From: a virus
Reading direction: 5' to 3' (one strand)
DNA: 64,000 nt
IMG/VR virus record: IMGVR_UViG_3300035698_019437
Span: 1-64,000 of that record
The notes below the pieces were generated by a model that was not told the DNA's origin, did no database searches, and worked only from the letters and a program-made list of their open reading frames with translations. A program made the position numbers and the translations under genes. Position 1 is the first letter of the stretch, and each line of letters starts with the position of its first letter. Positions 4,430-9,727 of this stretch are shown here, in pieces.

Positions 4430-4443
4430 TGGAAGGTAAATCT

Positions 4444-4524
4444 GGGAACGTGGCAGACCGGAATGCATCCGACTCTTAATCGGTGGGCAATTGCCCTATG
4501 AGGGTTCGACTCCCTTCGTTCCTA
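4444..4524 (+). tRNA. tRNA with CTT (Lys) anticodon and long variable arm
   Basis: Acceptor GGGAACG/CGTTCCT, anticodon loop CTCTTAA, V-arm GGGC-AATT-GCCC, T arm GAGGG-TTCGACT-CCCTT. Confidence 0.88.
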
Positions 4525-4552
4525 TTGGTTCAACTTTTTTGACATTTTAACA

Positions 4553-4601: not shown

Positions 4602-5123
4602 ATGGGTAATGTAAAATCTATTAAAAATTGTCAAAGAAGAAAAAAAGAACTAGCGGTGGAGAGATTTGGCGGCAAATGCTGCATATGTGGATATAAAAAA
4701 TGCGTAGGATCATTAGTATTCCATCATTTAGAAGATAAAAAAGAAAATCCATCTTATATCGTTGCAAGATGGAGTTGGGAAAGAGCAAAAAAAGAATTAG
4801 ATAAATGCATTCTGGTTTGTGCGAATTGTCATGGTGAAATCCACTATAACAACGAAATAGACACAAGATTGTTGAAATACTATAAACCGTTTTTGAAAAA
4901 GAAATGTATCGTATGTCATAAGAAATTTGAAACTAAGAAATACGAACAGAAGTTTTGTTCTCATGAATGTTCAGGATTTTCACAAAGAGTTGCAAAAAGA
5001 CCTTCGAAAAAAGACTTGAAATTTTTATTAGAACAAGAAACAAGTTGGGTCAAACTGGGTAGAATGTTTGGTGTATCTGATAATGCTGTAAGAAAATGGG
5101 CTAGGAAATACGGTTTATTATAA
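4602..5123 (+). CDS. HNH homing endonuclease with zinc finger and HTH
   Basis: GGKCCICGY..FHH..KCILVCANCHGEIH; KFCSHEC; GVSDNAVRKW. Confidence 0.9.
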   Translation: MGNVKSIKNCQRRKKELAVERFGGKCCICGYKKCVGSLVFHHLEDKKENPSYIVARWSWERAKKELDKCILVCANCHGEIHYNNEIDTRLLKYYKPFLKKKCIVCHKKFETKKYEQKFCSHECSGFSQRVAKRPSKKDLKFLLEQETSWVKLGRMFGVSDNAVRKWARKYGLL

Positions 5124-5889: not shown

Positions 5890-6426
5890 ATGGCTACATC
5901 TTCTGAACATGTAATGAATTGGCGAAATCGCACAAAGCAAAGATTAATTGAATACAAAGGTGGTAAATGCGAAAGATGCGGTTATGATAAAATACAATAT
6001 CCAAGAGCATTTGTCTTTCACCATAACGATCCATCAAAAAAAGAGATGTCTTTAAGTAAGGTTTGTAGAGCATTAGAAAAACTTAAAAAAGAAGTGGATA
6101 AATGCACTCTTTTATGCGCCAGATGTCATGCAGAAATACACGATGAGGCTGATGAAAAAAAACGCCAATTTAGATTAGACATAAAACCAAGGACTCCAAG
6201 GAAACTAAAACTTTGCAAATATTGTGGAACTGGATTTAAGACTTATCACAGAAAACAGAAGTTTTGTTCTGTCAAATGTAAAGCTATAGGAACAAGAAAA
6301 GTTTTGAACAGACCTAGTAAACATGTTTTAAAAAACATGAGAAAATCTATGTCACTAACTTCTATTGGCAAAAAATTTGGTGTTACTCATGGTACTATTC
6401 AAAAATGGTTAAATGTTAAATGTTAA
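5890..6426 (+). CDS. HNH homing endonuclease, paralog of 4602..5123
   Basis: GGKCERCGY..FHH..KCTLLCARCHAEIH; KFCSVKC; C-terminal HTH. Confidence 0.9.
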   Translation: MATSSEHVMNWRNRTKQRLIEYKGGKCERCGYDKIQYPRAFVFHHNDPSKKEMSLSKVCRALEKLKKEVDKCTLLCARCHAEIHDEADEKKRQFRLDIKPRTPRKLKLCKYCGTGFKTYHRKQKFCSVKCKAIGTRKVLNRPSKHVLKNMRKSMSLTSIGKKFGVTHGTIQKWLNVKC

Positions 6427-6602
6427 ATACATTGCAAGACATATTGGCTTTTGTAATTTATGTTGTTATTACGTTGGTGTTATTACCATCTTTTGCATTA
6501 ATATGGCTTGTAGGACTACCTATAATTGGCTTCAACTTAGAAGATACCAGGGATTATTGGGTATCTATTTTGACATGGGAATTTATGGAGTATGCGGTAT
6601 GA
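6420..6602 (+). CDS. small membrane protein
   Basis: Long hydrophobic stretch; ATGA overlap with next gene. Confidence 0.6.
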   Translation: MLNTLQDILAFVIYVVITLVLLPSFALIWLVGLPIIGFNLEDTRDYWVSILTWEFMEYAV

Positions 6603-7292: not shown

Positions 7293-7309
7293 TTTTAATT
7301 GGAAAACAT

Positions 7310-7394
7310 GCGGGCGTGACCAGAATTGGATATTGGAGCGGTCTTCTAAATCGCCGGGCTTGACCCATTGTAGGTTCGAATCCTACCGTCCGTG
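7310..7394 (+). tRNA. tRNA-Arg(TCT) with long variable arm
   Basis: Acceptor GCGGGCG/CGTCCGT, anticodon arm GCGGT-CTTCTAA-ATCGC, V-arm GGG-CTTGA-CCC, T arm GTAGG-TTCGAAT-CCTAC. Confidence 0.87.
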
Positions 7395-7398
7395 TTAT

Positions 7399-7575
7399 AT
7401 GTCAACTCCTTATAAATGTCGAAGATGTTGGTGGAGAGAAGGCAATTGTTGTTTCAACGAAGAATTCGCATTTACTAGTTTTGATAAGAAAGGTCTACGT
7501 GAAGGTGAGTTAATAGAAGAAGCAACTGTTGAAGCATGTCGCAAAAATATTGCTTCAAAAAATATACCCGCATAG
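7399..7575 (+). CDS. small Cys-rich protein
   Basis: CRRC..CC; lies between tRNAs, stop overlaps the 5' end of the next tRNA. Confidence 0.5.
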   Translation: MSTPYKCRRCWWREGNCCFNEEFAFTSFDKKGLREGELIEEATVEACRKNIASKNIPA

Positions 7576-7677
7576 CTCAACTGGATAGAGCAACGCTCTT
7601 CTTGTTCATCCTCCGTTAGAACGGAAACAGGGTTAACAAGAAAGCGTAGGTTAGAGGTTCGAATCCTCTTGTGGGTA
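7566..7677 (+). tRNA. tRNA-Arg(TCT) with 38-nt insertion in anticodon loop
   Basis: Acceptor ACCCGCA/TGTGGGT, D arm GCTC-AACTGGATA-GAGC, stem ACGCT/AGCGT enclosing CTTCT[7603-7640]AA, T arm AGAGG-TTCGAAT-CCTCT. Confidence 0.85.
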
Positions 7678-8852: not shown

Positions 8853-9203
8853 ATGGATAATCAGATGCCAAGGCCACATGGTAGATATCTTCATATCTAC
8901 GACGATTACGATAGCGTATATTTTCTTGATTTTCCTTTGATAGACAATAGAGCTTGTGTGGTTGTAGATTTACATACTAGTACGGTTGAACATATCTTCT
9001 GTAGCCACATTCAAAAGCAGTATAGATATCTTTGCGTTTATCAGAATAGTATTTCTGGAGGTTTCGAGAGCATGTGGCACGAAGCATTGTCTCTAACAAC
9101 GAAATTTAATATGTTAGTTATTATAGACAGGTTCGAAGGTAGAGTAACTAAAAACGTATATGGTCATGAACTCCTGTTTGTTTGGAAAGAGATAACAATA
9201 TGA
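8853..9203 (+). CDS. W-tag protein (FVWKEITI)
   Basis: First ATG after the tRNA; terminal motif. Confidence 0.72.
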   Translation: MDNQMPRPHGRYLHIYDDYDSVYFLDFPLIDNRACVVVDLHTSTVEHIFCSHIQKQYRYLCVYQNSISGGFESMWHEALSLTTKFNMLVIIDRFEGRVTKNVYGHELLFVWKEITI

Positions 9204-9727
9204 TGGAAATAGAAATCAAGATTCAGATTGGCGAGTTTGTTGAGATTGAAAAGATTGTTGAAGAGCATGCGTCTGTATGTCGTTCTGACTCTTACATAGA
9301 AGATATTTATTTTGACAACGGGACTTTAGCAGATCAAAGGAAATGTCTTCGTATTAGAAATGTAACAGGCAAATTCTGGGATGGGTTTTCTGTTCTGTCT
9401 TGCAAAGGTCCACCGTCAACAGAAGATGGTATCAAAAGCAGAAAAGAAACAGAAATTCCAGTACTCCCAAGAGATAAAGACGATTTCTTACATATCCTTG
9501 GAACTATGGGATTTGAAGAAACCGTACGTGTTAAAAAGCATCGTAGAGAATATACCTATGAATATTGCACAGTCTGCTTAGATGAAGTAGAGGGACTTGG
9601 GAATTTCATAGAGATAGAAGGAAACAGTATAGAAGAAGTTAATAAAGCAAAAGAAGTTCTTATTCCTAAAGATGATTTTGTTTGGGTAGTTGAAAGAAGC
9701 TATCCGGAATTGATGATGGAGAAATGA
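9200..9727 (+). CDS. CYTH-domain protein (class IV adenylate cyclase / triphosphate tunnel metalloenzyme family)
   Basis: N-terminal EIEIK (ExExK), DIYFD, LRIR, KGP..SRKETE, VKKHR, LDEVEGLGNFIEIE, SYPEL. Confidence 0.9.
   Translation: MMEIEIKIQIGEFVEIEKIVEEHASVCRSDSYIEDIYFDNGTLADQRKCLRIRNVTGKFWDGFSVLSCKGPPSTEDGIKSRKETEIPVLPRDKDDFLHILGTMGFEETVRVKKHRREYTYEYCTVCLDEVEGLGNFIEIEGNSIEEVNKAKEVLIPKDDFVWVVERSYPELMMEK

Follow-up and report, generated by a model that had tools for sequence, protein, structure and literature searches.

We show that a tRNA-Arg(UCU) gene of a large virus carries, between positions 36 and 37, a hairpin of 38 nt that is predicted to bury the anticodon, and that an unrelated hairpin occupies the same site, in the same pairing register, in the tRNA-Arg(UCU) gene of another large virus (L003). 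Our preferred reading is that the insert is a hairpin mini-intron, cut out by a nuclease specific for double-stranded RNA and resealed by an RNA ligase. We put the probability of this reading at roughly 0.45, slightly under even odds. The window, which is the whole stretch of DNA analyzed here, covers the opening 64 kb of an IMG/VR virus record of 147 kb.

The source virus is a large or huge tailed phage with a bacterial host, judging from the tape-measure protein, DnaB-type helicase and DnaE-type Pol III alpha polymerase that the record encodes. The record is AT-rich (GC ~36%) and ~29% complete (CheckV), with ~70% of the genome missing. DNA of this phage occurs in salt-lake metagenomes. Ten tRNA genes lie within the first 11 kb, interspersed with small same-strand ORFs and with HNH endonuclease genes (4602-5123 and 5890-6426). 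A protein with a CYTH (triphosphate tunnel) domain is encoded at 9182-9727, inside the tRNA array and 1.5 kb downstream of the interrupted gene. A promoter and terminator scan returned nothing exceeding chance. AGA makes up 58% of the arginine codons in the 147-kb record and is the main arginine codon of the phage; a tRNA-Arg(UCU) is thus worth having.

The interrupted gene, at 7566-7677 on the plus strand, forms a full cloverleaf. It matches the Rfam tRNA family (RF00005) end to end, across model positions 1-71, at 55 bits (E 4e-9; gathering threshold, 29 bits), which is the fourth best score among the window's ten tRNAs. The acceptor stem (7566-7572/7670-7676), D arm (7575-7591), anticodon stem (7593-7597/7643-7647), 5-nt variable loop (7648-7652) and T arm (7653-7669) are followed by the discriminator A (A73) at 7677, with no encoded CCA. 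Each of the 21 stem pairs is standard if one G-U is counted as such, and neither the D loop nor the T loop departs from the canonical form. The preliminary description of this DNA, made without database searches, had claimed as much for every arm outside the anticodon region. Neither stem mismatches nor lost conserved loop bases, the marks of a pseudogene, are found in this gene; it may also be too young for decay to be visible.

The extra bases confuse standard annotation. The RF00005 alignment places ~41 of them in the anticodon loop, and ARAGORN detects the gene only with introns enabled, reporting a 38-nt intron and calling the tRNA Leu(AAG). We reject this call: the variable loop is short, position 20 is A, and the anticodon arm is that of Arg(UCU) genes, without a difference. 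The arginine identity proposed at the outset is instead supported by A20, C35, the short class I variable loop and the CUUCUAA loop that is left when the insert is removed. Annotation pipelines for tRNAs can therefore miss or misname genes interrupted by hairpins, as the leucine call illustrates.

The borders of the insert are fixed by comparison with uninterrupted genes. The two strands of the anticodon stem are separated by 45 bases, and 38 of these are therefore extra. A plausible 7-nt loop, with anticodon AAG, UAG, UCG or UCU, can be obtained by several different deletions of 38 nt, but only the deletion of 7603-7640 gives CUUCUAA and reproduces an uninterrupted arm. This uninterrupted stretch, running from the end of the D stem through stem ACGCU, loop CUUCUAA and stem AGCGU to the start of the variable loop, occurs exactly on 109 metagenome contigs, all of which carry it in ordinary tRNA-Arg(UCU) genes (metagenome scan). 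Because no other 38-nt removal reproduces this arm, we conclude that the gene is a tRNA-Arg(UCU) interrupted at 36/37, and the 109 arms bear out the original proposal that excision of 7603-7640 restores CU-UCU-AA. The 5' exon (7566-7602) comprises tRNA positions 1-36, including A20, C32, U33 and the anticodon UCU at 7600-7602, as read from the Rfam alignment, the sequence and the identity to uninterrupted arms. The 3' exon (7641-7677) comprises A37, A38, the 3' strand of the anticodon stem, the variable loop, the T arm and the 3' strand of the acceptor stem. Between them, the candidate mini-intron is delimited by both the unique restoring deletion and its fold. The best full-length uninterrupted homologue is identical at 65/74 positions, with the differences mostly at paired acceptor and T-stem positions.

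The insert is unchanged in DNA contigs from public salt-lake runs, one of which may represent the source sample, and neither the metagenome scan nor the public DNA runs contain an insert-less allele of the gene. Apparent insert-less joints in the public DNA runs proved to be tRNA-Arg genes of other organisms that share the D and T arms. Among the public runs searched for the locus, DNA runs match and no RNA run does. A blastn-short search of the 147-kb record with the insert returned only the self match, so that it is not a MITE- or REP-like repeat.

The insert folds back on the anticodon. In the minimum free energy (MFE) fold, both of the whole gene and of the isolated arm, it extends the anticodon stem into a hairpin of ~22 bp. 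U33, the anticodon and the first four insert bases (7599-7606) form a perfect 8-bp helix with the last six insert bases, A37 and A38 (7635-7642), in the MFE and centroid structures alike; C32 is bulged, and a 1x1 mismatch follows. The distal hairpin (7608-7633) consists of 4 bp (7608-7611/7630-7633) and 5 bp (7612-7616/7621-7625), with a tetraloop at 7617-7620 and a 4-nt bulge at 7626-7629. At -23.3 kcal/mol, the fold of the arm is far more stable than those of shuffled sequences (-9.4 +/- 2.4 kcal/mol; z -5.8), none of which reached this value (0/200). The anticodon is thus fully sequestered in the predicted helix, and the MFE fold reproduces exactly the pairings from which a locked anticodon was first suggested. 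We also considered the hairpin tip as the anticodon loop of a long arm and rejected it, since the loop has 4-6 nt and no counterpart in L003.

The geometry of this helix matches that of an RNase III site. The two exon-insert junctions, between 7602 and 7603 and between 7640 and 7641, lie on opposite strands 2 bp apart in the pairing list. Cleavage there would therefore leave 2-nt 3' overhangs, the signature of RNase III, on both the tRNA and the excised hairpin. Given the register of the helix, the RNase III rule selects exactly the junction pair that yields CUUCUAA, in the window gene as in L003. From the proposed cut to the tetraloop there are 13 bp and one mismatch, including the 4 bp of 7603-7606/7635-7638, and the minimum for E. 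coli RNase III is 11 bp from cut to loop (PMC1540722). By its predicted geometry, the hairpin would qualify as an RNase III site.

What the sequences show is the gene, the borders of its insert, the fold with its geometry and the recurrence of the design; we infer transcription, cleavage and ligation, and with them any regulatory use. In the primary transcript, the insert would stack on the anticodon stem and pair with U33 through U36, and because of this pairing the interrupted RNA would be unable to decode. Arginyl-tRNA synthetase (ArgRS) is expected not to see C35 in such an RNA. An RNase III-type double-strand-specific endonuclease would cut both strands of the helix at the two junctions, so that U36 would end in a 3'-OH and A37 begin with a 5'-phosphate. 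The loop would then be resealed to CUUCUAA by an ATP-dependent RNA ligase of phage or host origin, of the same kind as T4 Rnl1 or Rnl2. RNase III ends (3'-OH, 5'-phosphate) are direct substrates of Rnl1- and Rnl2-type ligases, and T4 Rnl1 seals breaks in anticodon loops. The decoding of AGA would depend on this pair of nuclease and ligase.

The known part of the genome does not supply the enzymes. The preliminary description had named, as a check, a search for RtcB, an RNA ligase or a splicing endonuclease. In the 147-kb fragment, ~29% of the genome, we find no gene for RtcB, the tRNA splicing endonuclease (tRNA_int_endo, PF01974), Rnl1, RNA_ligase or RNase III. Both complete huge phages examined (362 and 455 kb) encode Rnl1- and Rnl2-type ligases, and a ligase in the missing ~70% of this genome is therefore plausible.

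The design recurs in a virus with a different tRNA and a different insert. An IMG/VR scan for Arg-type D arms separated by 41-70 nt from a T loop returned L003:5742-5841(-), a tRNA-Arg(UCU) gene on a 39-kb piece of a second large virus. This gene differs from the window gene in the acceptor stem, anticodon stem and T arm, and the hairpin that interrupts it, likewise at 36/37, has 26 nt and is unrelated. Its pairing register is that of the window gene: C32 is bulged, U33 pairs with A38, U34 with A37, C35 with G and U36 with A, after which the insert continues into its own stem. The arm folds at -23.0 kcal/mol. The junctions show the same 2-nt 3' overhang geometry, with 9 bp and a mismatch to the loop, which is borderline against the 11-bp minimum. 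Without its insert, L003 is identical at 73/74 positions to an uninterrupted viral tRNA-Arg(UCU) (L396) and at 72/74 to another uninterrupted gene, from which it differs by a compensatory pair. It also retains the Leu(UAA)-Arg(UCU) gene order found in other phages. This near-identity of the exons to those of an intact viral gene indicates that L003 has not decayed.

Two further viral genes, both Lys-like, carry inserts in other arrangements. In L061, the tRNA is locked by a 36-nt hairpin whose register is one base off, which would give a 3-nt overhang. The 58-kb, 96%-complete phage that carries L061 has no RNA ligase gene, and a phage ligase is thus not a universal companion of such inserts. 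In L138, from a phage distantly related to the source phage, a Lys-like tRNA has a 70-nt insert of two hairpins; we rejected this insert as an example of the same design, since the anticodon is not locked. Genes for tmRNA lie beside tRNA arrays on the viral or phage-like contigs L138 (1508-1831 and 5977-6121, including the Lys-like tRNA) and L080:929-1344(-), and a GOLLD RNA lies next to a tRNA array at L095:2958-3395(-).

No relative carrying the 7566-7677 locus was found. Searches by blastn against phage records returned no close relatives, and a search of IMG/VR returned no relatives of the neighbor protein. Homologues of the window's neighbor protein (41% identity) lead to phages with tRNA arrays, and the further contigs with such homologues carry no interrupted tRNAs. 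A pattern search for the same anticodon stem with any insert of 20-50 nt gave chance matches only. The 109 contigs with the uninterrupted arm share no synteny with the window, apart from HNH genes.

The presence of a second UCU tRNA counts against splicing. At 7309-7395 on the plus strand, 170 nt upstream of the interrupted gene, ARAGORN and Rfam (41.5 bits) place another UCU tRNA, which has a long variable arm. It is a possible alternative reader of AGA, and the interrupted gene may therefore be dispensable. Long variable arms in the style of class II tRNAs are also present elsewhere. The Lys CUU tRNA at 4443-4525 of the window has one, as do tRNAs elsewhere whose anticodons belong to class I (Arg UCG, Arg ACG, Asn and Gln), including those at L007:4578-4674, L009:7986-8081 and L004/L005. 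On L004/L005, the tRNA with the long arm adjoins one of normal length with the same anticodon.

With an alternative reader nearby, the gene could be one that is never spliced and never decodes. A hairpin insertion, whether by replication slip, fold-back or small palindromic insertion, would recently have disrupted a tRNA-Arg(UCU), leaving either a dead tRNA or a signal for RNase P/RNase Z processing between small early ORFs, which would have the shape of a tRNA but no need of an anticodon. The failure to find splicing genes in the 147-kb fragment is consistent with this, as is that to find relatives that could show selection. A role as punctuation would fit the neighboring ORFs, one of which terminates within the 5' end of the tRNA while another begins 15 nt past its 3' end. 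Yet no stem of the window gene has decayed, its score ranks above those of most tRNAs in the array, and in L003 the site and register recur with an unrelated insert between exons that match a functional-looking gene. Phage genomes are also generally thought to lose dead DNA fast. On balance, we consider a dead or non-decoding gene less likely than a mini-intron, but it is the main rival reading.

Bacteria provide a precedent for such disruption. The same D-arm and T-loop scan, run over one genome per prokaryote species, recovers many interrupted Arg-type tRNAs. In eight Chitinophagales and Sphingobacteriales genomes, a perfect palindrome of 19-20 nt follows position 38 of a tRNA-Arg(UCU) (L167:6138-6231, with an intact copy downstream at 6507-6580; also L187, L189, L190, L200, L243, L185 and L191). 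The interrupted copies have T-stem or acceptor mismatches. An intact tRNA-Arg(UCU) was present in 5/5 of the genomes searched, and lies ~370 nt downstream where both copies are readable. The interrupted copies are decaying pseudogenes, a precedent that calls for caution and favors reading the window gene as dead. The idea that the interrupted copy is the sole one was rejected, since an intact copy accompanies it in every genome searched. However, the insertion differs from that of the window in its site (38/39) and in being a perfect palindrome, and the Chitinophagales case need not be the same phenomenon.

Other bacteria appear to keep their interrupted genes. In three to four genomes of Tepidisphaeraceae (Planctomycetota), a tRNA-Arg(CCU) carries a GC-rich hairpin of 29-31 nt after position 36 (L213:3529-3633(-), L255:7057-7159, L267:3642-3744 and L194). 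The cloverleaf is intact, changes in the acceptor are compensatory and the sequence of the hairpin is variable. A pattern search of four Tepidisphaeraceae genomes found no uninterrupted UCCUAA tRNA. Since the interrupted genes are intact and an uninterrupted copy was not found, bacteria seem to maintain hairpin-interrupted tRNA genes. These hairpins are flanked by single strands and so lack the 2-nt stagger, which L061 also misses.

Many Alphaproteobacteria have an Arg-type tRNA in which a hairpin of 23-40 nt abuts the 3' strand of the anticodon stem (L162, L188, L199, L201, L209, L227, L235, L240, L245, L248, L249, L261 and others). The hairpin follows 4-5 single-stranded nucleotides, 'N-UCU-R' or 'UCCUA', and position 33 is often not U. 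Carriers include the isolates Roseomonas rosea DSM 14916, Aliiroseovarius sp. F20344, Loktanella sp. DJP18 and Aquibium sp. A9E412. The interrupted tRNAs of DPANN archaea and giant-virus contigs have ordinary introns at 37/38.

A broader generalization would be that bacteria and phages possess protein-only tRNA splicing, in which hairpin introns after the anticodon are excised by RNase III-type enzymes and rejoined by Rnl-type ligases, and which huge phages use as a switch to unlock their rare-codon tRNAs once the enzyme pair of phage or host is active. We regard this generalization as doubtful.

A different possibility is that the RNA is functional but never spliced. It would be a stable tRNA-like scaffold whose long hairpin acts as decoy or sponge, with an anticodon nuclease of the host, a tRNA-modifying enzyme and a double-stranded RNA-binding defense protein among the conceivable targets; alternatively, the insertion would shield the DNA of the gene from a homing endonuclease. 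HNH endonuclease genes do lie among the window's tRNAs, and on other contigs (L283, L314, L322, L325, L331 and L360) their homologues lie no more than ~200 nt from a tRNA-Arg(UCU) gene that has the identical arm and no insert. This proximity suggests that the HNH genes may be homing endonucleases associated with tRNA genes. Many viral tRNA-shaped genes, moreover, have conserved structured modules in place of the anticodon region, with several per phage. Against a decoy or shield, the hairpin of the window gene is tied to no protein, and the insert has no conserved motif. The bases that flank it also join into a perfect canonical loop; a decoy has no use for this, but a recent insertion would have left the flanks that way as well. 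Furthermore, an anticodon nuclease requires an open loop. We therefore consider a decoy or a shield improbable, though still a serious rival.

Two conserved modules of this kind were seen in the course of the scan. The first is an insert family of ~41-50 nt that is present in several different tRNAs per phage contig, as well as in Lachnospiraceae and Clostridia metagenome-assembled genomes (L019:710-820, 1052-1166 and 1253-1367; L113:3833-4185(-); L093; L056; L023; L071; L254; L221 and others). From an A-rich lead it runs through a covarying hairpin and the invariant AC[AU]GCAA into a U-rich tail, and at least one member is inserted not into the loop but into the 5' strand of the anticodon stem. 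In Rfam, tRNA is the sole family that covers this insert. A covariance model built on 41 members did not match the window gene (7566-7677) at E values up to 10 with filters off, and the window insert lies outside this family. The second module, 'CCCUCAUGG(U/C)GAAGG(A/G)CC..AAA.GC.GGGA', stands in place of the anticodon loop, or fills it, in tRNA-shaped genes whose viral contigs are unrelated to one another, namely in long tRNAs of L040, L075, L078, L080, L095, L098, L111, L121 and L129.

Established splicing routes do not account for the insert. Its place in the anticodon loop is one that introns of both bulge-helix-bulge (BHB) and group I type could occupy, the former being removed by an archaeal/eukaryote-type endonuclease with RtcB and the latter, here in degenerate form, by self-splicing. 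The site, 36/37, is presumably also where group I introns interrupt tRNA-Ile(CAU) and tRNA-Arg(CCU) of bacteria, and the exon ends in U and the insert in G. The preliminary description took these junctions to follow group I rules; they are better explained by the pairing needs of the insert, which ends in AG because it must pair with C35-U36. A group I intron has a P3-P9 core, usually of at least 200 nt, and matches RF00028, whereas 38 nt is too small for such a core and only the tRNA family matches the window at gathering score. With no Rfam intron or ribozyme match, the earlier statement that 38 nt cannot self-splice stands. A BHB consists of two 3-nt bulges 4 bp apart, with cuts that restore a 7-nt loop, in a host that has the splicing endonuclease. 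The sole BHB-like drawing returned by a brute-force search (bulges 7599-7601 and 7633-7635) would leave a loop of ~11 nt, in agreement with the earlier failure to see a clear BHB. EndA and RtcB are moreover absent from the 147-kb fragment, and the source is a tailed phage with a bacterial DnaE-type polymerase. Both BHB splicing and group I self-splicing are thus contradicted by our tests and effectively excluded.

The hairpin mini-intron that we favor can be compared with several known systems. Group I introns interrupt tRNA-Ile(CAU) of Azoarcus, tRNA-Arg(CCU) of Agrobacterium and tRNA-Leu(UAA) of cyanobacteria; they follow the anticodon, with an exon that ends in U and an insert that ends in G. 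These bacterial introns are ribozymes of ~200 nt or more, whereas the window insert has 38 nt and no catalytic core. Archaeal and eukaryotic tRNA introns resemble the window insert in being short and pairing with the anticodon, and they are spliced by proteins. However, they have a BHB and usually lie at 37/38, while the window insert lies at 36/37, in a phage of a bacterial host, with no usable BHB and no endonuclease found.

Parallels exist for the separate steps. In T4, Pnkp and Rnl1 act on nicked tRNA-Lys, which is likewise a case of a phage ligase sealing a break in the anticodon loop, although there it repairs damage by a host nuclease and is not splicing, and the 147-kb fragment has no ligase gene. 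The pieces of bacterial 23S rRNA stay separate after RNase III cleavage, whereas a tRNA with a nick in the anticodon loop would depend on a ligase. The intervening sequences of 23S rRNA and the T7 R1.1/uR1.1 sites, which are RNase III substrates, share with the window insert an extra hairpin on a conserved helix, the stagger of 2-nt 3' overhangs and at least 11 bp to the loop (PMC1540722).

The nearest known inserts are those of other huge phages. Lak megaphage tRNA genes have 'enigmatic' introns in the anticodon region, which are conserved across samples and were described without a mechanism (Devoto et al. 2019, PMC6784885). Both the Lak introns and the window insert lie in the anticodon region of huge bacteriophage tRNAs and are unfit for known splicing routes. 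The Lak introns differ in that one example has ~93 nt and one may encode a tRNA, whereas the window insert is simply a hairpin of 38 nt, paired with the anticodon. The phages themselves are unrelated, with a GC content of 26% and a gut habitat for Lak, compared with 36% and a salt lake here. The literature searched contains no description of a class of hairpin mini-introns. If the inserts are not spliced, they show that stable hairpins colonize the anticodon loop of tRNA-Arg genes. To our knowledge, self-splicing ribozymes of group I are the one kind of tRNA intron established in bacteria, and protein-catalyzed tRNA splicing is regarded as an archaeal and eukaryotic trait. If the inserts are spliced, they would represent an undescribed tRNA splicing pathway in bacteria and phages, with a new class of substrate for RNase III and for phage or bacterial RNA ligases, and a gate on the dominant arginine codon.
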